64,000 bases of DNA from Patescibacteria group bacterium (GCA_041666845.1 JBAYGC010000001.1:28864-92863); one strand, 5' to 3'; positions 21,099 to 59,019 are shown, numbered from the stretch's first letter. Program-made: numbers and translations. The notes: a model not told the origin generated them from the sequence alone.

Positions 21099-21563
21099 AT
21101 GAAGAAAATATATCACGCTATCAAAAACCACGAACAGATCAGAAGTCGCCCATATATTGCGCAATTTATTAAATTTGCAATTATCGGTACCGCTAACACA
21201 TTTGTTGACTTTGGCATTTACTTCGGTTTAACCCGTTCCTCGCAATTTTGGGAAACGCACTACTTGTGGGCAAACTTTATTGCTTTTGTTGTTGCTGCTT
21301 CTTCCAGTTATATATTCAACAAAAACTGGACTTTTAAGGATAAAAATAAAAGAATCCGAATTCAATATTCAAAATTCATACTGGTAAGCGCAGTCGGACT
21401 ATCATTGAACGAGACAATCCTTTACTTTTTGGTCACGAGGGTGGGGTTGCACGACCTAATATCAAAAGCAATGGCAATCAGCGTGGTATTGTTCTGGAAT
21501 TTCACAATTAACAAAATATGGACTTTTCGACCAGAAGTAACAGACCAAAACGGCGAGTTGTAA
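21099..21563 (+). CDS. gtrA: GtrA-family membrane protein (polyprenyl-phosphate-sugar flippase-associated)
   Basis: 154 aa, four TM; FIKFAIIGTANTFVDFGIYFGL signature. Confidence 0.7.
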   Translation: MKKIYHAIKNHEQIRSRPYIAQFIKFAIIGTANTFVDFGIYFGLTRSSQFWETHYLWANFIAFVVAASSSYIFNKNWTFKDKNKRIRIQYSKFILVSAVGLSLNETILYFLVTRVGLHDLISKAMAISVVLFWNFTINKIWTFRPEVTDQNGEL

Positions 21564-21600
21564 AATATTGAAGTTTAAGTTATAATCACGATGATCAGAA

Positions 21601-22341
21601 ATGAATAAAGTACCCATATTTAAAGCACTTTCCCTTGTAATTCCGGTTTATAACGAGGAAAAAAGAATTGCGAAATCACTGGCAATAATCATCAAGTACC
21701 TTGATCAGGTTTGTCAGGAATATGAGATTATCATTGTTGATGACGGGAGTAATGATCGGACTTTAGATGTAATAAGTGAACTGAGTACGGATCGTTTTCG
21801 GATAATAAAATTGGAGCAGAACAGGGGAAAAGGATACGCGGTAAAACAAGGCATGTTAGCGGCCAAATACGAGTATATTCTTTTTTCTGACTCGGATCTT
21901 TCAACACCGATTGAAGAAGTGGAAAAATTCGTACAATACACAAAAGATTTTGACGTGGTTATCGGTTCACGGGCAATGAAAGGTTCAAATATAGAAATTC
22001 ATCAGCCGAAGTTTAAGGAATTTTTAGGCAGAGTCGGAAACAAATTCATCCAGCTGATACTGCTCCCCGGGATTCAGGACACACAATGCGGATTTAAACT
22101 TTTTAACAAAAGAACTGTCGCAGTATTTGAAAATCAAACTATTGACCGGTGGGGGTTTGATTTTGAGGTTTTGTGGCTGGCCAAGCAGATGGGGTTCAAG
22201 ATTAAGGAGGTGCCGGTGCATTGGATCAACGATTTTGCCACAAAAGTTTCGGGATTTTCCAATTACGTGAGTACTTTCATGGAACTCATGAAAATAAAAT
22301 GGAACTCCATGACTAATAAATATAATATTCAAAAAAAATGA
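21601..22341 (+). CDS. GT2 glycosyltransferase, polyprenyl-phosphate sugar synthase type (DPM1/GtrB-like, soluble form)
   Basis: SLVIPVYNEE...IIIVDDGSNDRT...DSDLS motifs. Confidence 0.75.
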   Translation: MNKVPIFKALSLVIPVYNEEKRIAKSLAIIIKYLDQVCQEYEIIIVDDGSNDRTLDVISELSTDRFRIIKLEQNRGKGYAVKQGMLAAKYEYILFSDSDLSTPIEEVEKFVQYTKDFDVVIGSRAMKGSNIEIHQPKFKEFLGRVGNKFIQLILLPGIQDTQCGFKLFNKRTVAVFENQTIDRWGFDFEVLWLAKQMGFKIKEVPVHWINDFATKVSGFSNYVSTFMELMKIKWNSMTNKYNIQKK

Positions 22342-23360
22342 CTGAGACACCGATTTTTGACCAAGAGAATGTCCTAGTCTCCGGCGGGGCCGGGTTTATT
22401 GGATCGCATCTGTGCGATGAGCTGGTGAAAAAATACAAAGTCATTTGTATTGATAATTTTATTACCGGACAAGAACGCAATATTGACCACTTACTCGATC
22501 ATCCGAATTTTGAGTTTGTCCGCCATGACATTAATGAGCCAATAGATTTGGCCAAGTATCCGGGTTTGAAAAAATTCAAAGTGGAATTCCAGGGCATACA
22601 ACAGATATTTAATCTGGCCTGCCCGACTTCTCCGAAAGAATACAATAGAATCCCGATTGAAACACTTTTAACCAATTCGCACGGTACGCGCAACATGTTG
22701 GAACTGGCGGTAAAATATAAGGCTAAGTTTCTGCATGTTTCCAGTTCGTCAGTTTACGGCGAACCGCTGGAAAACGCCCCCTTTCAGGAAGATTACTGGG
22801 GCTTTATTAACCCGGTCGGACCCAGAAGTTGTTATAACGAGGGAAAAAGATTTGCTGAGAGCATGGTTACGAATTATAAGCGGGCGTATGAATTAGAGAC
22901 GAAAATTCTGCGTGTTTTTAATACTTTCGGTCCTCGAATGCGTATGGATGACGGCAGGATGATTCCTGATTTCGTTGTATCCGCGATCGAAAACAGGGAT
23001 ATTGAAATTTACGGCGATGAAAATGCCAACAGTACTTTTTGTTATATCAATGATTTGATCGAAGCAATAACCCGGGCAATGAAGGCGAGTTTCACCGGGA
23101 TACTGAATATCGGCAATCCGGAGGAGCATAGGATAGTTGATATAGCGAGCGAGATTATTAATATTACCGGGTCAAGTTCAAAAGTTGTATATAAGGAGGC
23201 ATTGCCCTTTACCTCCAAACAAGGGGTGCCTGATATAACATTAGCGAAAGCAAAACTAGGCTGGTTTCCGGTCGTACCATTGTCGAGTGGACTGAAGGAA
23301 ACTATCGAATATATGCGTGGGAGCAGTCATATTTTAAATTTTAATCCTAACAAACCTTAA
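22338..23360 (+). CDS. NAD-dependent epimerase/dehydratase, UDP-glucuronate decarboxylase (UXS)-like paralog
   Basis: [16 protein letters not shown]; YxxxK region; overall collinear with 24560-25495 but more diverged. Confidence 0.65.
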   Translation: MTETPIFDQENVLVSGGAGFIGSHLCDELVKKYKVICIDNFITGQERNIDHLLDHPNFEFVRHDINEPIDLAKYPGLKKFKVEFQGIQQIFNLACPTSPKEYNRIPIETLLTNSHGTRNMLELAVKYKAKFLHVSSSSVYGEPLENAPFQEDYWGFINPVGPRSCYNEGKRFAESMVTNYKRAYELETKILRVFNTFGPRMRMDDGRMIPDFVVSAIENRDIEIYGDENANSTFCYINDLIEAITRAMKASFTGILNIGNPEEHRIVDIASEIINITGSSSKVVYKEALPFTSKQGVPDITLAKAKLGWFPVVPLSSGLKETIEYMRGSSHILNFNPNKP

Positions 23361-23371
23361 CAAAATAAATA

Positions 23372-24553
23372 ATGTCTAAAACTGTAAAAAATAAGCGGAA
23401 TTATATTTTCACATCCGAATCAGTAACCGAAGGTCATCCGGATAAAGTCTGTGATCAGATTTCGGATGCTATTTTAGATGAATTATTAAAACAAGATAAA
23501 TTTTCGCACGCGGGAATCGAAACTTTTGCCACAACCGGACTAGTGGTGGTTGGTGGTGAAATCAGGACTAAAGGATACGTGGATGTTGCGGGAGTTGTGA
23601 GGAAAACCATCAAAGAAATCGGTTATGATGACCACGAAATCGGTTTTCATTGGGAGGATTGCGGTGTGATGGTAACAATTAACGAACAGAGCCCGGATAT
23701 CGCCCAGGGTGTGGATAGCGGAAAGGGCAAGTTCAAGGAACAGGGGGCGGGCGACCAGGGATTAATGTTCGGTTACGCTACCAATGAAACTAAGGACTAT
23801 ATGCCGCTGCCGATTGCGTTGGCGCATAAAATAACCCATCGGTTGGCTCAGGTAAGGAAAAACAAAACACTGCCATACCTAAGACCGGACGGTAAATCAG
23901 CCGTAGCCGTGGAATATCAGAACGGTAAACCAAAAAGAATTGATACGGTAATTGTAGCCACTAGCCATAACGAAAATGTATCATCCAAAAAAATTGAAAG
24001 AGATGTGATCAATAAAGTCATCAAGCCGGTCTGTGGTAAGTACATTGATGCTAAAACCAGATTTTTTGTGAATGCTACGGGGCGTTTCGTAAAATGCGGT
24101 CCTCCTGCTGATGCCGGACTCACTGGGAGAAAAATTATTGTTGATACTTACGGCGGACACGGTAGCCATGGTGGAGGAGCATTCTCCGGAAAAGATCCGT
24201 CAAAGGTTGACCGCTCCGCTTCCTATATGGCGCGTTATATTGCCAAAAACATTGTTGCGGCCGGACTGGCGGAAAAATGTGAAGTGCAACTCGCTTATGT
24301 CATCGGTTACGCCAAGCCGATCAGTGTTTTGGTGGATACCAAAGGTACCGGAAAAATTTCCGAGGAAAAAATTGTAGAGCTGGTGAAAAAGAATTTCCCA
24401 ATGACCCCGGCCGGTATTATCAATCATCTGAAACTGCTTAGACCGATCTACAAAAAGACCGCGGCCTACGGCCATTTCGGTAGGAGTGATAAAGATTTTA
24501 CCTGGGAGAAAACTGATAAAGTCGCAGTGCTGAAAAAAGCATTAAAGAAATAA
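23372..24553 (+). CDS. metK: S-adenosylmethionine synthetase
   Basis: [24 protein letters not shown]; [12 protein letters not shown]; full-length 393 aa. Confidence 0.9.
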
Positions 24554-24559: not shown

Positions 24560-25495
24560 ATGGCCAAGATTCTAGTTACAGGCGGTGCGGGTTTTATCGG
24601 CTCGCATTTATGCGAGTACCTGCTCAACAAAGGGGATGAGGTTATTTGTATTGATAACTTTTTTACCGGTCAGAAAAAAAACATTCAACTCTTGCTTGCA
24701 AATAATAATTTTGAGCTGATCAGGCACGATATTACATTTCCTATTTTTTTGGAAGTGGATCAAATCTACAACCTGGCATGTCCGGCTTCTCCAATTCACT
24801 ATCAAAAAAATCCGGTTAAGACCATCAAACTTTCTACAGTCGGAATGGTGAACATGCTGGGAATGGCCAGAAGATGCAATGCGCGTATTCTACAGGCATC
24901 CACCTCTGAAGTGTATGGAGATCCCAAAGAACATCCGCAAAAAGAAGGGTATTGGGGTAATGTCAACCCAATCGGCCCGAGGAGCTGTTATGATGAAGGT
25001 AAAAGGGTCTCTGAGTCTCTGATGTACGCGTACAAACTACAAAATAAAGCGGATATCCGCATTGTCAGAATATTCAACACTTACGGACCGAAGATGGCCT
25101 TTAACGACGGCAGAGTAGTATCAAACTTCATCTTGCAGGCTTTACGCGGAGAGGATATTACAATCTATGGCAAGGGCGATCAGACCAGAAGTTTCTGTTT
25201 TGTGTCGGATATGGTTCGAGGCATTGTAACTATGATGAATACGGAGAATTTCGACGGACCGGTAAATCTCGGCAATCCGGTGGAAAGCACAATCCTGGAA
25301 CTGGCGGAAAAAATAATTAAAATGACGGGATCCAACTCCAAGATTATTTATGAAGATCTGCCACAGGACGATCCAGTTCGCAGAAAGCCGGATATTTCAT
25401 TAGCCAAGCAAAAATTAAATTGGACTCCGGAAGTCGGGATTGATGAAGGTTTAAATACAACGATTGAATGGTTTAAAAAAGAGTTAAATAAATAA
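24560..25495 (+). CDS. uxs: UDP-glucuronate decarboxylase (UDP-xylose synthase)
   Basis: [15 protein letters not shown]...[12 protein letters not shown]...[10 protein letters not shown]...[11 protein letters not shown], typical UXS. Confidence 0.8.
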
Positions 25496-25521: not shown

Positions 25522-26811
25522 ATGAAAATATCAGTCATTGGCATAGGATATGTCGGTCTCGTCACCGCCACCTGTTTTGCAGAGTTAGGTAATACCGTAA
25601 CCTGCGTAGACATCGATAAAAATAGAATAGAGAATTTGAAAAAGGGGATCATTCCTATTTATGAACCGGGTCTTTCCGAGCTGGTAAAGAAGAATATCAA
25701 ACAGAAAAGGATTATCTTTACCACTAGCACTAAGCTGGCAGTACAAAATGGCAAAGTGATTTTCATTGCCGTAGGAACTCCTTCGGATAAAGACGGTCAA
25801 GCAGATTTAAAATATGTAAAGCAAGTTGCCAAGGAAATTGCACTGAGTATGGATGGCTATCGGATTATTGTGAATAAAAGCACGGTCCCGGTCGGAACAG
25901 GGGATATTGTAAAAGGAATAATTCAGAAAAAATATAAAGGAAACTTTAGTGTGGTATCCAATCCGGAATTTTTAAGAGAGGGATCGGCAATTTATGATAC
26001 GATGAATCCAGATAGAGTAGTGATAGGTAATGGTGATGATAAGGCCAGGAAAATAATGGAAGAATTATATCGTCCTTTCAAGGCCCCGATCGTATTTACG
26101 GATGTAAAAAGTGCGGAACTGATCAAATACGCCTCAAATTCAATGCTGGCAACACAAATTTCATTTATCAATAGCCTGGCCAATATCTGCGAGAAGGTCG
26201 GAGCGGATGTAGATTTCGTGGCGGAAGGTATGAAGCTGGATAAGAGAATCGGTAAGCATTCTTTCTTATCCGCGGGCGGAGGGTATGGCGGTAGCTGTTT
26301 CCCGAAGGACGTAAAAGCATTAATCAAGGCTTCAGATAGATACGGTTATAATTTTTCCATTCTGAAAGCTGTGGAAGATGTAAATGATGCTCAAAAAAGA
26401 CATGTTGTCACAAAGACAAAAAAACTGATTGGAAGTCTGAAAGGAAAAAAGATTGGTATTTGGGGCCTGGCTTTTAAACCGCATACGGATGATATGCGGG
26501 AGTCAATTTCTATTGTTGTTATAGATAAATTATTGCAGGAAGGTGTAAAAGTAAAGGCTTTTGATCCTGTGGCGCAGGATGAGGCAAGAAAAATATTCAA
26601 AGATAAGATTACATATTGTGCAGATGTCTGGGAAACAGTAAAAGATGTGGATGCGCTGATTATTCTGACCGAATGGCCGGAGTTTAAGGAAATAGATTTA
26701 TTCAAGCTGAAGAAAATAATGGATAAGCCCTATATTATGGATGCCAGAAATATCTTCACGCTGGAAGAAATGGAAGAAAAGGGATTTCACTACTTAAGTA
26801 TTGGCAGATAA
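25522..26811 (+). CDS. ugd: UDP-glucose 6-dehydrogenase
   Basis: MKISVIGIGYVGLVTATCFAELG; catalytic GGSCFPKD; 429 aa. Confidence 0.85.
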   Translation: MKISVIGIGYVGLVTATCFAELGNTVTCVDIDKNRIENLKKGIIPIYEPGLSELVKKNIKQKRIIFTTSTKLAVQNGKVIFIAVGTPSDKDGQADLKYVKQVAKEIALSMDGYRIIVNKSTVPVGTGDIVKGIIQKKYKGNFSVVSNPEFLREGSAIYDTMNPDRVVIGNGDDKARKIMEELYRPFKAPIVFTDVKSAELIKYASNSMLATQISFINSLANICEKVGADVDFVAEGMKLDKRIGKHSFLSAGGGYGGSCFPKDVKALIKASDRYGYNFSILKAVEDVNDAQKRHVVTKTKKLIGSLKGKKIGIWGLAFKPHTDDMRESISIVVIDKLLQEGVKVKAFDPVAQDEARKIFKDKITYCADVWETVKDVDALIILTEWPEFKEIDLFKLKKIMDKPYIMDARNIFTLEEMEEKGFHYLSIGR

Positions 26812-27766
26812 AAAAATGCGATTAATTGTCACAATTCCGGCTTACAACGAGGAGGAAAATATTGAAGCAGTTATTAAAGAAATTCCACGCGTAATTAGTG
26901 GAATTACTGATGTGAAGGTTTTAGTTTTAGATGACGGCTCTCGGGACCGGACAGTTGAGCTGGCAAAAACAGCCGGAGCGGATTATGTTATATCGCATAA
27001 ACAGAATAAGGGGCTGGCAGCAACGTTTCAGGATGCAATGGCGGCCGCTCTGGAGAGAGGTGCGGATATAGTTGTGAACACTGATGGTGACAATCACTAT
27101 AATCAGTCTCGAATACCGGATCTGATCAGGCCTATTTTAGATCAGAGGGCGGATATTGTAATTGGTGACCGGGAGATAAGAAAGCTAGAATACATGCCGG
27201 CTGCCAATAAGTACCTGAATTTAATGGGTAGTTACTTTGTTTCCCGTTTGATTGGTGTGAAAAAGACTCTGGATGTTTCATCTGGATTCCGTGCCTATAC
27301 CAGGGAAGCGGTGATGAGAATATCAATTCTTTCTAGGCATACGTATACACATGAAACACTGATTCAGGCAGTTGATAACAATTTAATTGTGACGTCCGTT
27401 CCGATTATGGCGCGCAAGGTCACCAGAAAATCCAGGCTAATCAAAAGTATTCCAAAACATTTAGCAAGATCTATATTTGTTATCTTAAGGGTGTTTACAG
27501 TATATAAGCCTTTGAGGGTATTATCATTTATTGGATCATTAATTATAATCCCAGGTATTATTCTGGTTATTAGATTTTTATATTATTTCATTCATGATAT
27601 CAGGGGTGGGGATGGCCATATTCAGTCATTGATAATTGCCGCGATTCTCATATTAGTTGGATTTCAAGTGCTTGTGTTAGCACTAATTGCATCAGCAATC
27701 GGTTGGAACAGAAAAACTTTAGAAGAAATACTGTACCGGAGTAAGAAAAATACTTTGCAAAAATGA
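26801..27766 (+). CDS. GT2 polyprenyl-phosphate sugar synthase (ArnC/DPM1-like) with C-terminal TM helices
   Basis: IVTIPAYNEEENI...VLVLDDGSRDRT...NTDGD; two C-terminal TM segments. Confidence 0.75.
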   Translation: MADKKMRLIVTIPAYNEEENIEAVIKEIPRVISGITDVKVLVLDDGSRDRTVELAKTAGADYVISHKQNKGLAATFQDAMAAALERGADIVVNTDGDNHYNQSRIPDLIRPILDQRADIVIGDREIRKLEYMPAANKYLNLMGSYFVSRLIGVKKTLDVSSGFRAYTREAVMRISILSRHTYTHETLIQAVDNNLIVTSVPIMARKVTRKSRLIKSIPKHLARSIFVILRVFTVYKPLRVLSFIGSLIIIPGIILVIRFLYYFIHDIRGGDGHIQSLIIAAILILVGFQVLVLALIASAIGWNRKTLEEILYRSKKNTLQK

Positions 27767-28830
27767 AAGTACTGTTTATTACCAGAAAATACCCTCCACA
27801 AGTGGGCGGGATGGAGAATTACAGTTACGGCCTGATTAATAATATTAATTGCCGGAAATATGTAATCGCTTTAAAGCATTCCCAGTACCATCTGGTCTGG
27901 TTTTTGCCGTATGCCTTCCTGAAGACTTTGGTGCTTTTTTGGCGTGTGGATGTAATCTATCTGTGCGATGCATTGCTGGTGCCGATGGGATATTTATTGA
28001 AGCTGATAACACGAAAACCGGTTTTCGTGACTGCGCACGGACTGGATGTTACGTATAACAAGTTTCAATATCAGAAGCTGGTTACGCCTTTCTTGAAAAA
28101 AATGGATCGAGTATTCGCGGTCAGTCAGAATACGGTGGAGGAGTGTATTAAAAGGGGGGTAAAGAGAAAGAAATGCAAATTTGTGCCGAATGGAGTAGCT
28201 GTTCCGGCTAATGGAAATGAATTTCATAAAAATGATTTGGAAAAATTCATTGACCTGTCGCTGGATAACAGAAAAGTGTTATTATCGCTGGGCAGGTTAA
28301 TTCCGCGAAAAGGTGTGGAATGGTTTATCAGTGAAGTATTTGAAAAACTGCCGCCGGAAGTTATATACATTGTAGTTGGTGAAGGGGTGAACCGGGAGGA
28401 AATAGAACATTCCGTTCATGAACGGGGGTTGGGCAATCGGATATTTATTGTTGGCAGGGTTGGTGATAAGGAAAGGGAAATGCTTTTTCAAACCGCGGAT
28501 ATTTTTATTATGCCCAATATACGGGTCGAAGGAGATGTCGAGGGATTCGGGATTGTGGCGATTGAAGCCGCAATTCAAGGTTTACCGGTCGTGGCATCCA
28601 ATATAGAAGGAATCAACGACGCAATCATCGAAGGGCACAATGGGTTCCTGGTGGAATCGGGTAATGCTCAGGCGTTTGAAGATAAAATCAGGGATATTCT
28701 GGATAATGTTGATCTAGATGAGCTGTCTCTGCAGGTTTCGGAATACACGAAACAGAACTACAGTTGGCAACAGGTCAGTGATCTGTATTTAAAGGAATTT
28801 CTGCGGATTCAAAAAGATCCCGCTGCATAA
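27763..28830 (+). CDS. GT4 glycosyltransferase
   Basis: EGFGIVAIEAAIQGLPVVASNIEGINDAIIEGHNGFLVE (GT4 E-x7-E region). Confidence 0.75.
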   Translation: MKVLFITRKYPPQVGGMENYSYGLINNINCRKYVIALKHSQYHLVWFLPYAFLKTLVLFWRVDVIYLCDALLVPMGYLLKLITRKPVFVTAHGLDVTYNKFQYQKLVTPFLKKMDRVFAVSQNTVEECIKRGVKRKKCKFVPNGVAVPANGNEFHKNDLEKFIDLSLDNRKVLLSLGRLIPRKGVEWFISEVFEKLPPEVIYIVVGEGVNREEIEHSVHERGLGNRIFIVGRVGDKEREMLFQTADIFIMPNIRVEGDVEGFGIVAIEAAIQGLPVVASNIEGINDAIIEGHNGFLVESGNAQAFEDKIRDILDNVDLDELSLQVSEYTKQNYSWQQVSDLYLKEFLRIQKDPAA

Positions 28831-28872
28831 TTTTATCATATCAGGGTAAATAACTAATATTAAAAATAGTTA

Positions 28873-29733
28873 ATGCATCATAAGCTGTATATTATAATTG
28901 TCACCTGGAATGGGGAGAAATACATTTATGATTGTCTGAGTTCAGTTTATAATCAACCGGAACTGGATTTTGGTGTGATTGTAGTGGATAACGGCTCAAA
29001 CGACCGGACTGTCGAAATTATCAAAGAAAAATTCGGAAATGTCACGTTGATTGAAAATAAAAAAAACCTCGGGTTTGCAGGTGGAAATAACATCGGAATC
29101 AAAAAAGCACTGTCCCTCGGCGCTGATTACGTCGCGTTACTTAACCAGGATACTGAAGTATCAAACAATTTTGTATCCGCCTGTGTAAATTATCTTGCGG
29201 ACCATAAAGATGCCGGCATGGTATCGCCGATAGTTCTGTATCCGAACAACAATAGAATCTGGTTTGCCGGATCACGTATTTTTAGGGGGGTAGAAATTCT
29301 TAAACATCCGACCACCAAGGTGGGGGAACATATTAATAAAAAGGCCATCATGAATGATGAAGTAAAGAGTTTTGGAGCAGATTGGCTTTCGGGATGTGCT
29401 TTATTTATCAGAAAGTCAGTATTTGATAAGATCGGCTTCATCGATGAGAAATTCTTCATGTACGGTGAAGACGTCGACTTCAGTCTTCGAGCGGTTAAAG
29501 CAGGTTATAAGTTGGGTGTCGTCAATAGTACTACAATTATTCATAAAGAAGAGCTGAATACCAAATTAAAAATAAATTCATATTTGTTTAAAAAAGCTGC
29601 ATATATGATTAAGGCCAGATGGACAATTGTCCATCGCTATTATGGTTTTAAAGAAAAGTGCTATTATATAATAAAGCTTGTGTATACACCTTTTTTTCAA
29701 TTAATATATGCGGTTAGAAAAATTATTTCTTAG
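28873..29733 (+). CDS. GT2 glycosyltransferase
   Basis: IIIVTWNGEKY...VIVVDNGSNDRT...NLGFAGGNNIG...LLNQDT. Confidence 0.75.
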   Translation: MHHKLYIIIVTWNGEKYIYDCLSSVYNQPELDFGVIVVDNGSNDRTVEIIKEKFGNVTLIENKKNLGFAGGNNIGIKKALSLGADYVALLNQDTEVSNNFVSACVNYLADHKDAGMVSPIVLYPNNNRIWFAGSRIFRGVEILKHPTTKVGEHINKKAIMNDEVKSFGADWLSGCALFIRKSVFDKIGFIDEKFFMYGEDVDFSLRAVKAGYKLGVVNSTTIIHKEELNTKLKINSYLFKKAAYMIKARWTIVHRYYGFKEKCYYIIKLVYTPFFQLIYAVRKIIS

Positions 29734-37850: not shown

Positions 37851-37881
37851 AAAAAGCACTAAGTTTAGTGCTTTTGATTTT
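37851..37881. terminator. Bidirectional intrinsic terminator between convergent genes
   Basis: aaaaa + agcacta-agtt-tagtgct + tttgatttt. Confidence 0.55.
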
Positions 37882-44314: not shown

Positions 44315-44318
44315 TAAA

Positions 44319-49978: not shown

Positions 49979-50912
49979 TTACTTCTTTGATTGAATAGAT
50001 TGTGCGTTTGCGGTCGTAGAATGTTTTGACGGCGATATCGGCAAGCAGTCCGGATACAAAAAGTTGTACACCGGTCAACATCAGAAATACGGCAATCAGA
50101 GGCCAGATGCTGTTTTGGAGTGCTATTCTACCCAGTATTCTTGCGATAGCCAGGTATATACCGAGTAATGTTCCGGCTGTACCCAAAAATACGCCCATGC
50201 TCCCGAACAGATGCAAAGGACGACCGGAATACTTGCGCCAAAACCATACCGATATCATATCAATCAAACCCTTGATAACTCGTTTCCAGTTATATTTTGT
50301 TGTGCCAGTAGTTCTGGGTCTATGATTGACCTTTACCTCGCCAATTCTGAAACCCTGCCATTTGAGAATTCCCGGAATGAACCGGTGGATCTCGCCGTAA
50401 AGCGTAAGATTTTCAAAACATTCGCTTCTAAAAGCTTTTAATGTACAGCCGGAATCGTGGATTTTATCGTTGATGAAAAATTTTCTTAAAAAATCTGCGC
50501 CTCTGGAAACAAACCGCTTGGAAAAATCATCTTTCCGGTCAAACCGCCAACCGGAAACAACATCATATCCATCAGCCATTTTATTTAGGAGATTTGGAAT
50601 ATCCCTCGGATCATTCTGGCCGTCGCCGTCCATGGTGATAAATATTTCACCCTCCGCATTTTTGAAACCGGCATCCATAGCGGCTGTCTGTCCGAAATTC
50701 TTTCTAAATCTGATTATTTTGATAGGGGATAATGACTGCAATCTCTCAAAAGTGTGGTCATTTGATCCATCGTCTACGAATATTATCTCGTATGGTTCGT
50801 TTAGACCCCCCATCACTGATTTAATTTCAACAAATAAAGGCTGAACGGCATCCTGTTCGTTAAATGCGGGTACGATTATGGAATATTTATATTTCTTTTC
50901 TGTGTCACTCAT
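49941..50912 (-). CDS. GT2 polyprenyl-phosphate sugar synthase (ArnC/DPM1/GtrB-like) with C-terminal TM helices
   Basis: YSIIVPAFNEQD...IIFVDDGSNDHT...TMDGDGQNDP; two C-terminal TM. Confidence 0.8.
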   Translation of the reverse strand: MSDTEKKYKYSIIVPAFNEQDAVQPLFVEIKSVMGGLNEPYEIIFVDDGSNDHTFERLQSLSPIKIIRFRKNFGQTAAMDAGFKNAEGEIFITMDGDGQNDPRDIPNLLNKMADGYDVVSGWRFDRKDDFSKRFVSRGADFLRKFFINDKIHDSGCTLKAFRSECFENLTLYGEIHRFIPGILKWQGFRIGEVKVNHRPRTTGTTKYNWKRVIKGLIDMISVWFWRKYSGRPLHLFGSMGVFLGTAGTLLGIYLAIARILGRIALQNSIWPLIAVFLMLTGVQLFVSGLLADIAVKTFYDRKRTIYSIKEVIENKDSDENSDT

Positions 50913-50917: not shown

Positions 50918-51871
50918 TTATTTATAATATTCTTTATACCACTCAATAAATTGATGAATACCTCCCTCAATATTTGTTTTCGGTTCAAATCCGAGCATTG
51001 ATTTAGCTTTGCTAATATCAGCATGTGTCTTCTCTACATCACCGGCCTGCATTGGAAGCATTTTCATTTTCGCCTTCAAACCAAGCTCTTTTTCTATCAG
51101 TCTAATAAAATATTCGAGACTAACAGTATGTGAATTGCCTAAATTAAAAATCTCATATTTATGCGGAAGCTTCAACGCACTAATCACGCCGTCAATTACA
51201 TCATCAATATAGGTAAAATCGCGGTGGTGCTTGCCGAAGTTATAGACGTCTATCTCATCACCGGCGATAATTTTCTTGGTGAATTTATAATATGCCATAT
51301 CGGGGCGACCGTACGGTCCGTAGGCAGTAAAAAAACGTAGTCCCGTAACATTTAAATCATATAATTTGTGATATACGTGCGCCAGCAGTTCGCAGGATTT
51401 TTTCGTTGCCGCATAGACAGAAATAGGGGAGTCAACCGGATCGTTTTCAGAAAATGGGATTTTTGTATTTCCGCCATATACTGAAGATGAGGAGGCAAAA
51501 ACAAAATTTGTAATATTATAATCTTTTGCTAATTCTAAAAGATTTAATGTTCCGCGGATATTTACATCCTGATAGATAAATGGGTCTTCAATTGATGCTC
51601 TTACACCGGCCCTGGCCGCTAAATGGCAGATTCGGTCAATTTTATGCTCTTTAAATATTTGTTTTAATCGTTCAAACTCTCTGATATCTGCCCGATATAT
51701 CGGAAACTTAAACTTACCTAGGAGTTTATTTATCCTGTCCTCTTTTAATTGTGGATCGTAATAATCGTTGAAATCATCAACGCAGACAACGTTTTCGCCG
51801 TTTTCAATAAGGCGTTTTATGGTGTGTGAGCCGATGAATCCAGCTCCACCAGTTACAAGCGTAGTGGACAT
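50918..51871 (-). CDS. UDP-glucuronate 4-epimerase (CapI/WbpP/Gla family SDR)
   Basis: [12 protein letters not shown]...DDFNDYYDPQLK...ASSSSVYG...SPISVYAATKKSCELLAHVY...TGLRFFTAYGPYGRPDMAYYKFTK...RDFTYIDD. -10 TATAAT (minus) at 51905-51910. Confidence 0.75.
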   Translation of the reverse strand: MSTTLVTGGAGFIGSHTIKRLIENGENVVCVDDFNDYYDPQLKEDRINKLLGKFKFPIYRADIREFERLKQIFKEHKIDRICHLAARAGVRASIEDPFIYQDVNIRGTLNLLELAKDYNITNFVFASSSSVYGGNTKIPFSENDPVDSPISVYAATKKSCELLAHVYHKLYDLNVTGLRFFTAYGPYGRPDMAYYKFTKKIIAGDEIDVYNFGKHHRDFTYIDDVIDGVISALKLPHKYEIFNLGNSHTVSLEYFIRLIEKELGLKAKMKMLPMQAGDVEKTHADISKAKSMLGFEPKTNIEGGIHQFIEWYKEYYK

Positions 51872-51991: not shown

Positions 51992-53176
51992 CTAAATTAT
52001 TTTGTATTTCTTTCCGACTTTTTCAAAAGCAGAAATTGCTTTATCCAGATCTGCTTTAGTATGCCCGGCGGATATCTGTACTCTGATTCTAGCTTTGCCT
52101 TGTGGTACAACAGGGTAATAGAAACCGATAACATAGATTCCCTCAGCCAATAAATCTTCCGACATTTTCTGGGCCAGTTCTGCTTCATACAGCATGATCG
52201 GAACGATCGGGTGGACACCTTCTTTGATATCGAAACCAATTTTGGTCATTTCGGTACGGAAGTATTTGGCATTATCCATTACCGTTTCACGGAAAGACGG
52301 ATTCTTTTGGATGATATCTAAAATTGCAATAGATGTTGCGGTAACTAGTGGAGATAAAGAATTAGAGAAAAGATATGTTCGGGAACGTTGGCGCAGGAGA
52401 TCAACAATTTCTTTCCGACCGGAGACAAATCCGCCGGATGCACCACCCAGCGCTTTACCTAGAGTACCGGTAACTAAATCAACTTTGTTTGCAACTTCAT
52501 AATATTCAGGCGTGCCTTTGCCACTCTTTCCGATAAAACCCGATGCGTGTGAATCGTCAACGACAACCAAAGCCCCGTATTTTTCCGCCAACTCACAGAT
52601 GGATTTAATATCTGCGATGTGACCATCCATACTGAACACGCCGTCGGTGGCAATTATTTTTCGGCGAAAATCCTTACTTTCCTTTAGCTTTGTTTCCAGG
52701 TCATCCATATCCATGTGCTGGAATATCTTCCTTTCCGCTTTAGAAAGGCGCACGCCGTCAATAATACTGGCATGGTTCAGTTCGTCGGAGATTATTACAT
52801 CATCCTTGGACGTAATTGTCTCAAACAGACCGGTGTTGGCATCAAAGCATGAAGAATACAATATTGTATCTTCTGTGCCGAGAAACTCTGACAGTTTATT
52901 TTCCAGAGTCTTATGAATAGATTGTGTACCGCAGATGAACCGGACGGATGACAGACCATAGCCCCACTGGTCAAGGGAACTTTTCGCTACAGTGACTACA
53001 TCCGGGTGGTTTGCGAGTCCCAGGTAGTTATTTGCACAAAAATTCAGCAATTCTTTTCCATCAGCAATAATTTTCGCGCCCTGCGGTGTTTCCAGAACCC
53101 TTTCTTTTTTATACAGATTATTTTCTTTTATCGTGTTAATCTCCGAGAGAAAACCGTCTTTTGTGGTATTGTCCAT
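51992..53176 (-). CDS. kbl: 2-amino-3-ketobutyrate CoA ligase / glycine C-acetyltransferase (alpha-oxoamine synthase family)
   Basis: FCANNYLGLANHPDV; VRFICGTQSIH; LYSSCFDAN; NHASIIDG; PLP-Lys region GTLGKALGG. Confidence 0.8.
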   Translation of the reverse strand: MDNTTKDGFLSEINTIKENNLYKKERVLETPQGAKIIADGKELLNFCANNYLGLANHPDVVTVAKSSLDQWGYGLSSVRFICGTQSIHKTLENKLSEFLGTEDTILYSSCFDANTGLFETITSKDDVIISDELNHASIIDGVRLSKAERKIFQHMDMDDLETKLKESKDFRRKIIATDGVFSMDGHIADIKSICELAEKYGALVVVDDSHASGFIGKSGKGTPEYYEVANKVDLVTGTLGKALGGASGGFVSGRKEIVDLLRQRSRTYLFSNSLSPLVTATSIAILDIIQKNPSFRETVMDNAKYFRTEMTKIGFDIKEGVHPIVPIMLYEAELAQKMSEDLLAEGIYVIGFYYPVVPQGKARIRVQISAGHTKADLDKAISAFEKVGKKYKII

Positions 53177-53436: not shown

Positions 53437-54159
53437 ATGAAAGGTATAATTTTAGCGGGAGGACAGGCCACTAGACTACGGCCACTGACCCTGGTTACCA
53501 ATAAGCATCTTTTGCCGGTTTATGATAAACCGATGATTTATTATCCTTTGTTGACCCTGGCCAATGCCGGTATCAAAGATATCATGATTATTTCCGGCAA
53601 AGGGCACGCCGGCCACTTTTTGGAGCTATTGCGCTCCGGCGAAGAATTTGGTGTGCGATTATCCTATGGGGTACAGGAAGAGGCCGGCGGGATTGCGCAG
53701 GCTCTGGCTTTATGCCGGGATTTTGCGGATGAGGATAAGATCGCGGTAATTCTCGGCGACAATATTTTTGAAGATAATGTGGCAAAACAAGCCGCATTGG
53801 ATTTCGAACAGCAGGAAAAGGGGGCAAAAATATTTCTTAAAGAAGTTCCGGATCCGGAACGTTTTGGTGTGGCGGAAATCAGCGGTGATAAAATACTTGG
53901 CATTGAAGAAAAACCGAAAAGTCCGAAGAGCTCCATGGCCGTCGTTGGTTTGTATATGTATGACAATCAGGTATGGAAAGTTATAGAAAATCTGAAACCG
54001 TCCGGCAGGGGAGAGTTGGAAATTACTGATGTGAATAACTATTATATTAATCAGGGGACAATGACTTACGAAGTTTTGAGTGGCTTATGGACGGACGCGG
54101 GCACGTTTGATTCGCTTTATCGCGCTAATAAAATCGTAGCAGAAAGAAATAAACAATAA
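53437..54159 (+). CDS. rmlA: Glucose-1-phosphate thymidylyltransferase, short form (RmlA-like sugar nucleotidyltransferase)
   Basis: MKGIILAGGQATRLRPLT...KHLLPVYDKPMIYYPL; 240 aa. Confidence 0.75.
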   Translation: MKGIILAGGQATRLRPLTLVTNKHLLPVYDKPMIYYPLLTLANAGIKDIMIISGKGHAGHFLELLRSGEEFGVRLSYGVQEEAGGIAQALALCRDFADEDKIAVILGDNIFEDNVAKQAALDFEQQEKGAKIFLKEVPDPERFGVAEISGDKILGIEEKPKSPKSSMAVVGLYMYDNQVWKVIENLKPSGRGELEITDVNNYYINQGTMTYEVLSGLWTDAGTFDSLYRANKIVAERNKQ

Positions 54160-54163: not shown

Positions 54164-54643
54164 ATGATTGACGGAGTAAAAATCAAAGAGCTAATTGTCA
54201 GGCAGGACATTCCTGATACCGATGAAGCCACGGAAAAACCCGGGTTCCTGATGGAGGTATTGCGTGATGACGAGAATTTACTGACTAAATACGGACAAAC
54301 AACTTTTACCGTCGCTTACAAAGGAACAATTAAGGCATTCCATTACCACGAAAAACAGGACGACCTTTGGTTTGTCGCAACCGGCAAAGCGATGATTGTT
54401 CTGCATGATTTAAGGCCGGAATCGCCGACTCATGGTGAAACGCAGGTGATCAATGCCGGGGTTGATGATTATAAACTGGTGGTCATTCCGATCGGTGTTG
54501 CACACGGCTACAAGGTGCTTTCAGACGAGCCGGTACTGCTTTTTTATCACACTACAGAAAGTTACAACGCTCAAGAGCCGGATGAGAAGCGGATGGCGTA
54601 TAATGATTCGAAAGTGGGATTTGACTGGAGTCGGAATTCATAA
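54164..54643 (+). CDS. rmlC: dTDP-4-dehydrorhamnose 3,5-epimerase-like cupin
   Basis: IKAFHYHEKQDDLWFVATGKAMIVLHDLR matches the RmlC core (RGLHYQ...G...DV.VDLR). Confidence 0.65.
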   Translation: MIDGVKIKELIVRQDIPDTDEATEKPGFLMEVLRDDENLLTKYGQTTFTVAYKGTIKAFHYHEKQDDLWFVATGKAMIVLHDLRPESPTHGETQVINAGVDDYKLVVIPIGVAHGYKVLSDEPVLLFYHTTESYNAQEPDEKRMAYNDSKVGFDWSRNS

Positions 54644-54703: not shown

Positions 54704-55639
54704 ATGAAAATACACATCTCAGGATCGCTGGCGTACGACCGGATTATGGATTTCCCGGGACATTTTAAAGATCATATTTTATCGGAAAAAGTTCATATGA
54801 TCAATGTCAGTTTTGGTATTAATGTGCTGAAGGAAAATTTCGGCGGTACAGCCGGCAACATTGCCTATACCTTAAAATTATTGGGCAGTGACCCGACAAT
54901 TGTCGGTACAGCCGGCAGAGATTTCAGGCCGTACGCGGAGTGGTTGAGAAAGCATAAAATAAGCATGGCCGGAATCAAAATAATACCGTCCGAACTGACG
55001 GCCGGAGCCTATATTATTACGGACCGGTCGAATAATCAGATTACTGCCTTTCACTTTGGTGCGATGTCCCATTCGGTGGGAAAATTGGGTACGCCTGGTA
55101 AAAACAGCCTGGTTATTATTTCCCCCGGCAATGCTTCAGATATGGTAAAAACAGTCAGAGCCTGTAAAAAAGGCGGGATGCCGTACATTTTTGATCCGGG
55201 TCAGCAGATTCCGGCGCTTATCACAAAGGATCTTCGATATCTGCTGGAGGGTTCGGATATGTTCATCGTTAATGACTATGAATATGCCTTAGTTACCAAG
55301 AGATTGAAGCTCAGTCAGACGAAGTTAATGAAAATGACTAATACGGCGATTATTACCAAGGGTGACAAGGGTTCGCAGGTGACCACTGCAAACGGGACTT
55401 TCTCAGTCAGGGCAGTTACACCCAGAAAAGTAGTTGATCCGACAGGTGCCGGGGATGCATTTCGTTCCGGGCTAATTCATGGTATAATAAAAAAGTACCC
55501 GTTAAAGAAAGCTGTTCAGCTGGCCACATTGGTCGCTACCTATCCGATTGAGCACCACGGTACGCAGGAACATCGTTTTACAAAAAAAGAGATTGCTAAC
55601 CGGTTTATTAGCAATTTTAAAGCAAAATTAACTAATTAA
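54704..55639 (+). CDS. PfkB-family carbohydrate kinase (ribokinase-like)
   Basis: GGTAGNIAYTLKLLG; C-terminal DPTGAGDAFRSG anion-hole motif. Confidence 0.75.
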   Translation: MKIHISGSLAYDRIMDFPGHFKDHILSEKVHMINVSFGINVLKENFGGTAGNIAYTLKLLGSDPTIVGTAGRDFRPYAEWLRKHKISMAGIKIIPSELTAGAYIITDRSNNQITAFHFGAMSHSVGKLGTPGKNSLVIISPGNASDMVKTVRACKKGGMPYIFDPGQQIPALITKDLRYLLEGSDMFIVNDYEYALVTKRLKLSQTKLMKMTNTAIITKGDKGSQVTTANGTFSVRAVTPRKVVDPTGAGDAFRSGLIHGIIKKYPLKKAVQLATLVATYPIEHHGTQEHRFTKKEIANRFISNFKAKLTN

Positions 55640-55840: not shown

Positions 55841-57130
<1,290 letters not shown>

Positions 57131-57185
57131 ATAATGAATAATGTATGATTTAAATCGGTTAATTATACATTTTACATTTTAAATT

Positions 57186-58199
57186 ATGAATTTACTAATT
57201 ACTGGAGGAGCGGGGTTTATCGGCTCCAACTTCATCCACTACTGGCTGAAAAGTCATCCGGAAGATCACATTGTGAATCTGGATAAATTGACGTACTGTG
57301 GAAATCTGGAGAATCTAAAAAGTATCGAAGCCAGTCCAAATTATAAATTTGTAAAAGGGGATGTTTGTGATGCGCAGTTAGTAAATAAGGTACTGCAGGG
57401 AATTGATACGGTCGTGCATTTTGCGGCAGAGAGTCATGTGGATCGATCAATTTTAGAACCCGATGCATTCATAAAGACAAATATATTAGGAACACATGTT
57501 CTGCTTGATGCGTCATTGAAAAATAATATTAAACGATTTCATCATATCTCGACTGATGAAGTTTTTGGCGCGCTTCCCTTGGAGGACAATTCCAAATTCT
57601 CTGAAAGCACAAAATATGACCCCCGGAGCCCGTATTCCGCTTCTAAAGCCGCTTCTGACCACCTTGTGAATGCGTATTATACGACCTACGGTCTGCCGGT
57701 GACAATTACCAACACGTCAAACAATTACGGTCCGTTTCAGTATCCGGAAAAACTGTTGCCGTTGGCCATTACCAATTTGATTGAAAATAAAAAAGTACCA
57801 ATTTACGGTGACGGTAAATATGTCCGCGACTGGCTCTATGTGGAAGACCACTGCCGGGCGGTGGAATTAGTATTGGAGAAGGCAAAAATCGGTGAAACAT
57901 ACCTGATCGGCGGACTGACTGAAGATGTAAACAATCTGGAATTGATCAGAAGAGTATTAAAGATTATGGGAAAATCAGAGGAAATGCTGGAATATGTTAA
58001 AGACCGTCCGGGGCATGACCGGCGCTATGCGGTGGATTGGAGTAAGGCGAAGAATGATCTGGGTTATAAACCGCTATACGATTTGGATACTTATCTGGAA
58101 AAGACGATTGACTGGTATCAGAAAAATGAAGATTGGTGGAAACGTATCAAGTCCGGGGATTATTTGAAATATTACAAAACACAATATGAGAAGCGATAA
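57186..58199 (+). CDS. rmlB: dTDP-glucose 4,6-dehydratase
   Basis: [13 protein letters not shown]...LDKLTYCGN...HFAAESHVDRSI. Confidence 0.85.
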   Translation: MNLLITGGAGFIGSNFIHYWLKSHPEDHIVNLDKLTYCGNLENLKSIEASPNYKFVKGDVCDAQLVNKVLQGIDTVVHFAAESHVDRSILEPDAFIKTNILGTHVLLDASLKNNIKRFHHISTDEVFGALPLEDNSKFSESTKYDPRSPYSASKAASDHLVNAYYTTYGLPVTITNTSNNYGPFQYPEKLLPLAITNLIENKKVPIYGDGKYVRDWLYVEDHCRAVELVLEKAKIGETYLIGGLTEDVNNLELIRRVLKIMGKSEEMLEYVKDRPGHDRRYAVDWSKAKNDLGYKPLYDLDTYLEKTIDWYQKNEDWWKRIKSGDYLKYYKTQYEKR

Positions 58200-59019
58200 A
58201 TTGGTATTAATCCTGGGAGCGAAAGGAATGCTCGGATCCGAGCTTTCTCTTATTTTCAGCGATCTGCAACCGATCTGCTGGGATATTGATGATCTGGATA
58301 TTACTAAAGAGGAAATAGTACAAAAAAGAATCAGGGAGATGTCGCCATCCGTGATCATTAACGCTTCTGCTTATACAAATGTGGACGGTGCGGAGGACAA
58401 TGAAGAATTGGCGAATCGAATCAACGGAACGGCCGTCGGACATTTGGCGAAAACCGCGGAACTGATCGGTGCGAAACTGATCCACTATTCTACCGATTAC
58501 GTTTTTAACGGTGAATGTGAGTCCGGTTATCAAGAATCCGACAAACCGGATCCGGTCAATGCGTATGGCCGGTCAAAACTGCTGGGAGAGCAGGCGATTC
58601 AGAAAGAGTGTAAAGATTACTATATTATCCGCACTTCCTGGCTTTATGGCCGGGGAGGGAAAAATTTTGTCGATACAATGATTAAACTGGGCAAAGAAAA
58701 TAAAGCAGTAAAAGTAGTAAACGATCAGTTCGGCAAGCCGACCTATACCGCTGATTTGGCTAGGCAGACCAGAAAATTGATTGAGGGTGATAAACCGTAT
58801 GGTATTTATCATGTCACCAACGAAAAACAGGCTAGCTGGTTTGATTTCGCGGAAAAGATATTTGAGCTTTCCGGGATTAAAACGACAGTTATTCCTGTCA
58901 CATCCGGTGAATTTCCGCGTCCGGCCAAAAGACCGAACTATTCTTCATTAATTAATACAAAAATTCCCAAGCAAAGGAGCTGGGAAAGCGCGCTGTCTGA
59001 ATATCTGTCCGCAAGATAA
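58186..59019 (+). CDS. rmlD: dTDP-4-dehydrorhamnose reductase
   Basis: LILGAKGMLGSEL...INASAYTNVDGAE...YSTDYVFNG. Confidence 0.8.
   Translation: MRSDKLVLILGAKGMLGSELSLIFSDLQPICWDIDDLDITKEEIVQKRIREMSPSVIINASAYTNVDGAEDNEELANRINGTAVGHLAKTAELIGAKLIHYSTDYVFNGECESGYQESDKPDPVNAYGRSKLLGEQAIQKECKDYYIIRTSWLYGRGGKNFVDTMIKLGKENKAVKVVNDQFGKPTYTADLARQTRKLIEGDKPYGIYHVTNEKQASWFDFAEKIFELSGIKTTVIPVTSGEFPRPAKRPNYSSLINTKIPKQRSWESALSEYLSAR

Follow-up and report, generated by a model that had tools for sequence, protein, structure and literature searches.

How might a bacterium assemble a surface glycan from a gene cluster that carries no recognizable priming phosphoglycosyltransferase (PGT) and neither Wzy nor Wzz? 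This question is raised by a ~38-kb interval (positions 21099–59019) within a 64-kb stretch of DNA, hereafter the window, from a Patescibacteria group bacterium (GCA_041666845.1, JBAYGC010000001.1:28864-92863). An earlier note on this DNA had described the interval as a glycan locus which decorates a pre-existing acceptor via lipid-linked monosaccharides. Judged from the family assignments of its proteins, the interval is a genuine surface-glycan gene cluster. The account of it that we favor, with a confidence little above even, is the assembly of oligosaccharides on a polyprenyl-monophosphate carrier, together with one monosaccharide module composed of GtrA and a glycosyltransferase of family 2 (GT2), in a Patescibacterium related to Kerfeldbacteria.

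Open reading frames (ORFs) were scanned against Pfam, NCBIfam, and PDB sequences, structures were modeled with AlphaFold, and folds were matched with Foldseek. The Pfam scan comprised all window ORFs of at least 140 amino acids (aa), minus a few in the high-GC patches at 6–14 kb that overlap a called gene or listed ORF. Contigs sharing the terminal genes of the window provided a further 10 kb on each side, for which the precomputed Pfam hits of the called genes were read, and five related Patescibacteria loci (neighborhoods of ~20 kb each, within L006–L011) were compared. Every ORF named in the earlier note was present at its position.

Putative polyprenyl-phosphate glycosyltransferases and the lack of a primer in the locus

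The enzymes that would initiate and extend the glycan are encoded in two arrays, one on each strand:

21099–21563, plus strand: GtrA-family small membrane protein, candidate flippase for polyprenyl-phosphate-monosaccharide (GtrA_DPMS_TM, 104 bits)
21601–22341, plus strand: soluble GT2, DPMS/GtrB-like, forming module A with GtrA (Glycos_transf_2, 110 bits)
26801–27766, plus strand: membrane-anchored GT2, AglJ/DPMS-like, proposed initiator of operon B (AglJ is the top NCBIfam match, 118 bits)
27763–28830, plus strand: GT4, 355 aa, with a 4-bp overlap with the 26801 gene (Glycos_transf_1, 123 bits)
28873–29733, plus strand: GT2, rhamnosyl-/galactofuranosyl-transferase-like (TIGR01556, 81 bits, and GlfT1, 81 bits, both below cut-off)
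29708–31888, plus strand: GT-C glycosyltransferase, 726 aa, ~12 transmembrane helices (PMT_2, 28.8 bits, gathering cut-off 26.1)
43421–44377, minus strand: GT2, last gene of operon C (Glycos_transf_2, 86 bits; EpsD, 163 bits; AglG, 48 bits)
44319–45005, minus strand: S-adenosylmethionine (SAM)-dependent methyltransferase (Methyltransf_11)
45020–45841, minus strand: SAM-dependent methyltransferase (Methyltransf_11, 73 bits)
45810–47063, minus strand: Wzx-type flippase 2 (Polysacc_synt, 161 bits)
47068–48108, minus strand: GT2 (Glycos_transf_2, 75 bits)
48098–48823, minus strand: SAM-dependent methyltransferase (Methyltransf_23, 59 bits)
48824–49978, minus strand: GT4 (Glycos_transf_1, 154 bits; PglJ, 123 bits; TuaC, 126 bits)
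49941–50912, minus strand: membrane-anchored GT2, ArnC/GtrB-like, proposed initiator of operon C (ArnC structures, 138 bits, residues 7–313)
50918–51871, minus strand: SDR epimerase, probably a UDP-glucuronate 4-epimerase, first gene of operon C (PDB 5u4q, 334 bits)

The GT2 enzymes at 21601, 26801, and 49941 all have polyprenyl-phosphate glycosyltransferases (ArnC, GtrB, DPMS, AglJ, and PgfS) as their best matches. The first, for which no transmembrane helix is predicted, matches PgfS (81 bits) and ArnC (68 bits) in NCBIfam, and Pyrococcus DPMS (66 bits) and GtrB (56 bits) in PDB. The other two contain two C-terminal transmembrane helices each. The 26801 protein also matches a Dol-P-hexose transferase (91 bits), DPMS (55 bits), and ArnC (47 bits), and the 49941 protein, whose NCBIfam scores are 155 bits for ArnC and 150 bits for PgfS, aligns with ArnC over the full length, transmembrane region included. 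The previous description of GtrA with a soluble DPM1/GtrB-like GT2 at 21099–22341, and of two membrane-anchored ArnC/DPM1-like GT2s, is borne out by these matches, and Pfam also recovered the two Wzx flippases, three cytoplasmic GT2 enzymes, and two GT4 enzymes which had been counted. The family scan yielded GtrA, Glycos_transf_2, and PMT_2 assignments, and no YfhO match in the 998-aa membrane protein discussed below.

On the plus strand, unit A/B has the order GtrA, soluble GT2, UXS-2, MetK, UXS, Ugd, membrane-anchored GT2, GT4, GT2, and 726-aa GT-C, with overlaps of −4, −11, −4, and −26 bp; for operon B (26801–31888) the spacings are −11, −4, +42, and −26 bp. Operon C, running on the minus strand from 51871 down to 43421, consists of nine genes (epimerase, membrane-anchored GT2, GT4, methyltransferase, GT2, Wzx, methyltransferase, methyltransferase, and GT2), whose junctions all overlap or span at most 14 bp. 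Cytoplasmic glycosyltransferases, Wzx, and GT-C are encoded in operons B and C together with the putative GT2 initiators. Sites resembling promoters occur where divergent genes leave a gap (36079 and 53331) and between the Kbl and epimerase genes (51933–51905); these few well-placed sites come from a sigma-70 scan which showed no enrichment over shuffles (77 vs 71 and 73 vs 72).

The following scheme may be proposed. On the basis of homology, the three DPM1/ArnC/AglJ-like GT2 enzymes would charge the polyprenyl phosphate carrier with a sugar. Since each membrane-anchored GT2 heads an operon of glycosyltransferase and methyltransferase genes leading to Wzx or GT-C, and considering synteny as well, these two are proposed to act as initiators that make polyprenyl-monophosphate-sugar. 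The co-transcribed GT4/GT2 enzymes would elongate this product, methyltransferases would modify it, Wzx proteins would flip the polyprenyl-phosphate-linked oligosaccharides, and the GT-C enzymes (726, 792, and 998 aa) might transfer them en bloc outside the membrane and possibly polymerize them. GtrA and the soluble GT2 would supply the donor of a monosaccharide side branch. A cell-wall glycopolymer, peptidoglycan, or a surface protein could serve as the acceptor. Monophosphate priming would make a PGT unnecessary, which would explain why the locus is free of one.

The earlier note had seen no PGT, Wzy, or Wzz, and the wider view agrees with it. Neither Bac_transf nor Glycos_transf_4, and none of Wzy_C, O-antigen polymerase, EpsG, and Wzz, was matched by the scanned ORFs of the 64-kb window or by the precomputed Pfam hits of the 10-kb flanks, where a PGT with Wzy/Wzz had been thought possible, and the five related neighborhoods likewise contain no PGT, Wzy, or Wzz Pfam match. 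Considering that Wzy proteins are divergent, a missing Wzy match is a weak negative. DUF2304 has no match in the window. The upstream flank encodes a penicillin-binding protein, FabA, NAGPA, and a helicase, and the downstream flank encodes L9, PyrG, L27, type IV pilins, and PilO.

Alternatively, a PGT encoded elsewhere might prime an undecaprenyl-diphosphate-linked glycan in the classical manner, which GT4/GT2 enzymes elongate, Wzx flips, and one or more of the big membrane proteins polymerize or ligate; the three polyprenyl-phosphate GT2s would then just make monosaccharide donors for side-chain decoration in three-component systems. We consider such an assembly possible but doubtful. A primer missing from the glycan locus is not unusual, and primers outside such loci are common, as exemplified by TagO, GacO, and RgpG of the streptococcal and lactococcal rhamnans. 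The rhamnan primer gene tagO/gacO of streptococci and lactococci is handled apart from the rgp/cwps loci (PMC9574508). In addition, textbook three-component systems are likewise built from GtrA, a GT2, and a GT-C; PglJ and TuaC, to which the GT4 at 48824 is similar, work on diphosphate-linked acceptors; and Wzx (MOP) flippases, a feature of the Wzx/Wzy pathway, are present (90 and 161 bits). The PGT search covered the window, its flanks, and the related loci, and the remaining genome could encode a primer. On the other hand, a PGT is absent from 84 kb here and from the ~20-kb neighborhoods of the five related loci, the Wzy and Wzz models find no match in them, a single GtrA stands against three polyprenyl-phosphate GT2 enzymes, and the membrane-anchored GT2 genes head glycosyltransferase arrays with which they are translationally coupled.

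The locus might also handle monosaccharides only, three ArnC/ArnT- or GtrABC-like modules decorating a pre-existing acceptor with no oligosaccharide built on lipid. The inventory of three polyprenyl-phosphate GT2-like and three GT-C enzymes would suit this, and Ugd, UXS, an ArnC-like GT2, and a PMT_2 GT-C may together resemble a de-aminated Arn pathway. However, two Wzx, three GT2, two GT4, and three methyltransferases would be left without a role although their genes are co-operonic with the membrane-anchored GT2s, and for this reason the proposal is not supported. Moreover, whole arrays of glycosyltransferase, methyltransferase, and Wzx genes are swapped between relatives, like the diversity of repeat units or oligosaccharides. 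We regard the monosaccharide-only scheme as very improbable. What stands of the earlier interpretation as extracytoplasmic decoration is its base of lipid-phosphate-sugar synthases plus GT-C; its restriction to monosaccharides leaves these arrays unexplained.

The GT-C core and its variable surroundings

Between the two arrays lies a group of genes for large membrane proteins and their partners:

36121–37629, plus strand: 502-aa membrane-anchored protein with an all-beta ectodomain, conserved partner of the 998-aa GT-C-like protein (model pLDDT 86)
37631–37834, plus strand: conserved 67-aa membrane ORF with two hydrophobic helices (ORF call)
37852–37875, either strand: hairpin with a 10-bp stem, terminator-like on both strands, between convergent genes
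37901–40897, minus strand: GT-C-like protein, 998 aa, with a C-terminal beta-sandwich (carbohydrate-binding-like) region (predicted structure, Foldseek, and transitive homology)
41033–43411, plus strand: GT-C, 792 aa, ~14 transmembrane helices (PMT_2, 38.1 bits, gathering cut-off 26.1)

Where the earlier note had counted three to four GT-C proteins, three are retained: those of 726 and 792 aa, assigned from their sequences, and that of 998 aa, for which the predicted structure points the same way. The fourth candidate, the 502-aa protein, was rejected because it has one N-terminal transmembrane helix and a beta-rich ectodomain; Foldseek retrieves generic jelly-rolls for it (TM-scores <0.2), and it has no Pfam match.

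The 726-aa enzyme contains an HHD..RDD loop motif which is invariant among orthologs. The 792-aa enzyme, which has no PDB sequence match, is the most divergent core gene product, with 22–23% identity to its positional counterparts in L006 and L007, whereas the 998-aa (53–73%), 502-aa (61–73%), and 726-aa (53–62%) proteins are far better conserved among relatives. Such divergence would be expected of a transferase that determines specificity. Serotype-specific genes for Wzy or ligases show a similar pattern.

The 998-aa protein has no match in Pfam, NCBIfam, or PDB sequences. Its model (pLDDT 87, pTM 0.73) consists of a helical membrane domain (residues 1–435) followed by beta-sandwich domains. 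Foldseek relates it to AftD (E 3e-7) and STT3 (E 1e-6), with target-normalized TM-scores of 0.43–0.49; just the general GT-C fold is shared with STT3, and no STT3 Pfam match was obtained. The C-terminal part retrieves the carbohydrate-binding domains of BcsB, CBM22, and GH101 enzymes, and such domains in the predicted structure suggest that the acceptor is a glycan. Asp49, within a GGDxxQ motif that probably lies in the first extracytoplasmic loop, is invariant in 31 sequences. Homologs occur among Patescibacteria, Kerfeldbacteria included, and those more distantly related contain YfhO, DUF6311, or PMT_2. Profile–profile comparison against the families of the 726- and 792-aa proteins gave probabilities of 21% and 1%, which is uninformative. 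At a clustering level of 50% identity, a search with the family profile detected 33,658 clusters with E ≤ 1e-3, of which 8,811 had E ≤ 1e-30; the members are mostly 550–750 aa long, and none of ten sampled has a Pfam match. This is a large and essentially unannotated membrane-protein family, and we assign the 998-aa protein as GT-C-like with moderate confidence.

The 502-aa protein is conserved in L007, L008, and L009. The 67-aa ORF begins 1 bp past its gene, and ORFs of 67 aa occupy the equivalent place in L006 and L009; its product, without a Pfam match, may belong to the GT-C core as a small subunit. The 502- and 67-aa genes on the plus strand converge with the 998-aa gene across the hairpin, and the 998-aa gene is divergent from the 792-aa gene.

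Comparison of the related loci revealed that both modules and core recur. In L009, whose 998-aa homolog is 73% identical, gene order is the same over ~23 kb (window ~28–51 kb), and the GT2/GT4/GT2/GT-C module is present as far as L009 extends. In L006 (59% identity) this module, with products of 321, 355, 286, and 726 aa, and the head of unit C are kept, whereas the other glycosyltransferase and methyltransferase genes differ and the glycerophosphate cassette described below (unit D) is swapped for a Wzx–GT2 cassette, whose Wzx is 29% identical to that of the window; the same replacement of unit D is seen in L007. The GT4 at 27763 has an ortholog of the same size in both L006 and L009. The 792/998/502 core is common to L007, L008, and L009. 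The Kerfeldbacteria loci L007 and L008 keep the core, but with WbqC, GT56, and acetyltransferase genes around it, and contain a reduced module composed of a GT2 (287 aa) and a membrane protein of 690–725 aa without Pfam match. In the distant Patescibacteria loci L010 and L011, homologs of ~1000 aa lie amid arrays of Wzx, glycosyltransferase, and methyltransferase genes and adjoin membrane proteins of 650–733 aa and GT2s of ~310–330 aa; L010 also has Ugd, and in L011 a GacI/GacJ-type pair (230-aa GT2 plus DUF2304, 85 bits) is directly upstream of the homolog. Swappable glycosyltransferase, methyltransferase, and Wzx cassettes around a conserved core suggest serotype-like diversity.

In JGI sample 3300037810, a 265-kb contig stops at ~4.8 kb and a 284-kb contig begins at ~60.3 kb in window positions. 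The glycan region thus breaks the assembly of this sample, suggesting strain-level heterogeneity, which is consistent with a strain-variable content between ~4.8 and ~60.3 kb.

Several points weigh against monophosphate-linked oligosaccharide assembly as a full account of the locus. The matches of all three polyprenyl-phosphate GT2s are far below equivalog cut-offs and support an assignment to enzyme class or family only. A flippase gene is missing from operon B, and neither the window nor the annotations of the 10-kb flanks revealed an acceptor, an LCP ligase (LytR_cpsA_psr), or an ABC exporter. For the 998-aa protein, the GT-C call depends on structure prediction, the TM-scores are modest (0.3 when normalized to the query), and just 2 of 31 aligned family members touch a GT-C Pfam model (YfhO or PTPS_related). 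The sequences would fit elongation of the GT2 products as well as their direct use as monosaccharide donors, and the protein roles proposed here come from comparison of sequences and models. A primer of the WecA/TagO/WbaP type could be encoded elsewhere in the genome, and the locus may specify more than one glycoconjugate, namely two or three made independently of each other.

Precursor supply, the putative glycerophosphate cassette, and neighboring genes

The remaining genes of the interval concern precursors and a cassette with its own Wzx (unit D, minus strand, in the order Wzx, GpsA-like, NTP transferase, and CDP-alcohol transferase):

22338–23360, plus strand: second paralog of UDP-glucuronate decarboxylase, UXS-2 (human UXS1 structures, 292 bits)
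23372–24553, plus strand: SAM synthetase MetK (all three S-AdoMet_synt domains)
24560–25495, plus strand: UDP-glucuronate decarboxylase, UXS (human UXS1 structures, 424 bits)
25522–26811, plus strand: UDP-glucose 6-dehydrogenase, Ugd (all three UDPG_MGDP_dh domains)
31900–32751, minus strand: CDP-alcohol phosphotransferase, 283 aa (CDP-OH_P_transf, 48 bits, gathering cut-off 22; AF2299, 48 bits)
32753–33454, minus strand: cytidylyltransferase-like NTP transferase, LicC/IPCT-like (NTP_transf_3, 61 bits; PDB 6pd1 and LicC 1jyk)
33468–34481, minus strand: NAD(P)H glycerol-3-phosphate dehydrogenase-like, GpsA-like (N and C domains of NAD_Gly3P_dh)
34474–35937, minus strand: Wzx-type (MOP) flippase 1, first gene of the cassette, ~12 transmembrane helices (Polysacc_synt, 90 bits)
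51992–53176, minus strand: glycine C-acetyltransferase, Kbl (NF005394, 623 bits, cut-off 460)
53437–54159, plus strand: short RmlA, glucose-1-phosphate thymidylyltransferase-like (TIGR01207, 267 bits, below cut-off 361)
54164–54643, plus strand: RmlC-like cupin epimerase (dTDP_sugar_isom, 71 bits; TIGR01221, 60 bits, below cut-off)
54704–55639, plus strand: PfkB kinase, nucleoside(adenosine)-kinase-like (PfkB, 131 bits; nucleoside kinase model, 134 bits, below cut-off)
55850–57130, plus strand: S-adenosylhomocysteine (SAH) hydrolase, AhcY (AdoHcyase, 216 bits; AdoHcyase_NAD, 191 bits)
57186–58199, plus strand: dTDP-glucose 4,6-dehydratase RmlB (TIGR01181, 478 bits, cut-off 365)
58186–59019, plus strand: dTDP-4-dehydrorhamnose reductase RmlD (TIGR01214, 309 bits, cut-off 224)

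Judged from these assignments, cytoplasmic enzymes can supply UDP-GlcA, UDP-Xyl, dTDP-Rha, and SAM, and probably also UDP-GalA and CDP-glycerol; the precursor enzymes would thus imply a glycan with Xyl, GalA, Rha, methyl groups, and glycerophosphate. Within the precursor set that the earlier note had called full, Ugd, both UXS paralogs, RmlB, and RmlD are firm, whereas RmlA and RmlC are represented by proteins scoring below cut-off and the epimerase is assigned from PDB matches, among which the UDP-GlcA 4-epimerase of B. cereus (6zl6, 180 bits) is the best named one. The plus-strand precursor unit has the order RmlA, RmlC, PfkB, AhcY, RmlB, and RmlD. Genes of the SAM cycle (MetK, SAH hydrolase, and the nucleoside/adenosine-like PfkB kinase) occur in the glycan locus beside three methyltransferases.

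We also considered whether the SDR protein at 50918 is a GalE-like threonine dehydrogenase that partners Kbl. This was rejected because its PDB matches are nucleotide-sugar epimerases, with no threonine dehydrogenase structure among 50 matches at E ≤ 1e-30. Kbl (51992–53176), which adjoins this epimerase-like gene and has no recognizable threonine dehydrogenase partner nearby, is probably a housekeeping enzyme outside the glycan system.

The CDP-alcohol phosphotransferase of unit D starts at 32751, as in an identical database protein, and not at 32826 as first given. Members of this family share the signature D1xxD2GxxAR...GxxxD3xxxD4 with eight absolutely conserved residues, the fourth Asp being the catalytic base (PMC4634129). 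Seven of the eight are kept in the 31900–32751 protein, and His113 stands in the place of D4. The motif is recognizable in 109 relatives, of which 80 have His at this position, 11 have Gly, and 4 have Asp or Glu. A protein which scores above the Pfam gathering threshold and yet lacks the canonical D4 represents a divergent subfamily. Its best PDB matches are the soluble-donor transferases AF2299 and IPCT-DIPPS, whose pairing with a cytidylyltransferase it shares; the adjoining GpsA-like gene (183 bits to the GpsA subfamily model, below cut-off) fits the CDP-glycerol of AF2299. Unlike them, the window protein has a separate cytidylyltransferase gene, His at D4, and a glycan-locus setting of the kind beside Wzx/YfhO. 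AF2299 binds CDP-glycerol (PMC4634129), and since it is the best structural relative of the transferase, unit D probably makes CDP-glycerol. The cassette might add a glycerophosphate unit to a lipid-linked species, which its own Wzx would flip.

CDP-alcohol transferases are usually lipid enzymes (PMC4634129), and ordinary phospholipid synthesis was therefore weighed for the GpsA-like and CDP-alcohol transferase genes. It is less likely because the subfamily recurs beside Wzx, glycosyltransferase, or YfhO genes in three other lineages. A Marinimicrobia contig (L020) has the order Wzx, NTP transferase, and CDP-alcohol transferase beside GT4, GT2, and Wzz genes; L021 has GT4, Wzx, and CDP-alcohol transferase beside Ugd; and L018 has NTP transferase, CDP-alcohol transferase, a small protein, and YfhO. 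The His-variant subfamily is usually accompanied by a cytidylyltransferase. Its genomic context supports a glycan-related role.

It is conceivable, though unlikely, that the His-variant transferase, acting with its cytidylyltransferase and, in this locus, with the GpsA-like enzyme, itself charges the lipid carrier: an alcohol-phosphate (e.g., glycerol-phosphate) would pass from CDP-alcohol to polyprenol or to polyprenyl phosphate. The adjoining Wzx would flip the resulting lipid-linked unit, and GT-C/YfhO enzymes would then use it outside the membrane, or it would prime glycan assembly. If the attacking nucleophile were a phosphate and not a hydroxyl, this could account for the absence of the catalytic-base Asp. 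If true, PGTs and DPM1-like GT2s would be joined by another, third class of enzymes that initiate synthesis or form donors, and, considering the GT2-initiated operons as well, the surface glycans of these Patescibacteria would be built wholly without phosphoglycosyl transferases.

The usual lipid role of CDP-alcohol transferases also belongs to a further proposal, that the interval is a mosaic of adjacent unrelated functions (several glycoconjugate pathways, phospholipid head-group synthesis, and housekeeping genes). Kbl passes its equivalog cut-off and forms its own transcription unit, MetK and AhcY are genes of general metabolism (these three and the PfkB kinase all lie within the interval), and the CDP-alcohol cassette is exchanged for a Wzx–GT2 cassette in L006 and L007. 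We consider a mosaic very improbable, since gene order is kept over ~23 kb in L009 at 73% identity of the 998-aa protein, the CDP-alcohol subfamily adjoins Wzx, glycosyltransferase, or YfhO genes in the three lineages above, and the methyl-cycle genes fit the three methyltransferases.

Several observations concern the rest of the window, whose GC content is ~0.38. Gene-sized patches of GC 0.52–0.69 are present at 7100–7900, 8300–9100, and 10700–13900 (genome GC 0.38). They contain ORFs without convincing Pfam matches: 7013–7903 (minus), ~8522–9185, 10854–12971 (minus; 705 aa, faint PKD/BiPBP_C matches), and 12984–14036 (minus; 350 aa, with a signal peptide). The arrangement is repeated on a separate 8.8-kb contig of another assembly. 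The patches might stem from horizontal transfer or from secreted proteins of biased composition; an rRNA operon was ruled out by Rfam and tRNA scans, which found no rRNA, tRNA, or Rfam family in the window. Upstream of the locus are an ECF-type sigma factor and then a protein with three transmembrane helices (14381–15725), and membrane-anchored PD40 beta-propeller proteins lie on both sides (17930–19015 and 59022–60359), one with a PEGA domain.

Comparison with known systems and significance

The cwps/PSP system of Lactococcus lactis (WpsA/B, WpsC–F, WpsG, WpsJ, and WpsI/H), a complex multi-component glycosylation system, resembles the proposed scheme in many respects. A GT-A GT2 makes polyprenyl-monophosphate-sugar (WpsA/B form C55-P-GlcNAc), cytoplasmic glycosyltransferases (WpsC–F) elongate it, Wzx (WpsG) flips the product, and the mutually dissimilar GT-C enzymes WpsJ and WpsI transfer and polymerize it outside the membrane (PMC9574508). 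Strain-variable glycosyltransferase content, rml genes, and a separate three-component side-chain system are further likenesses, as is glycerophosphate decoration, which is found in relatives of this system; GacI/J/K/L of streptococci are related to it (PMC9574508). On the other hand, the window has no DUF2304 activator, and its membrane-anchored GT2s carry their own transmembrane helices, although L011 has the GT2 plus DUF2304 pair. Neither the window nor the flank annotations showed a rhamnan ABC exporter or an LCP ligase, WpsJ and WpsI are not homologous in sequence to the GT-C proteins of the window, the proposed source of glycerophosphate is a CDP-alcohol phosphotransferase in place of a GacH/LtaS-type enzyme, and the locus belongs to a Patescibacterium.

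[quoted passage not shown] AglJ is the best NCBIfam match of the 26801 GT2 (118 bits, as listed above), and the window has counterparts of AglM (Ugd), AglP (methyltransferases), AglR (Wzx-like), and AglS (PMT_2 GT-C). It differs in that no STT3/AglB model is matched, the scores are below equivalog cut-offs, and the locus belongs to a bacterium, with peptidoglycan genes (MurA at 60444).

The GtrA/GtrB/GtrC and CsbB/GtcA/YfhO systems share GtrA, GT2s, and polytopic GT-C proteins with the window, but the latter has many extra cytoplasmic glycosyltransferases and two Wzx, and its 998-aa protein has no YfhO model match. The Arn pathway is approached by the full-length alignment of the 49941 protein with ArnC and by Ugd and the UXS-type decarboxylases, which parallel Ugd/ArnA; however, ArnB, the formyltransferase domain of ArnA, ArnD, and ArnE/F were not found among the family matches of the window. 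The locus is a variant of multi-component transmembrane glycosylation already known from lactococci and archaea, here in an uncultivated lineage.

To our knowledge no Patescibacteria glycan has been characterized, and literature searches for Patescibacteria glycan or GT-C work gave nothing specific. Patescibacteria (Candidate Phyla Radiation, CPR) are ultra-small, and cultivated ones live attached to host cells. Considering this lifestyle, their surface chemistry probably governs host attachment and phage recognition. The locus offers a testable blueprint for this chemistry, with a conserved GT-C core of 792-, 998-, 67-, and 502-aa proteins plus swappable cassettes, and with a likely monophosphate-primed assembly which resembles that of archaea and lactococci. 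It also draws attention to two uncharacterized families: the 998-aa GT-C-like family, and the CDP-alcohol phosphotransferases without the canonical catalytic Asp, which occur in polysaccharide loci of several phyla.

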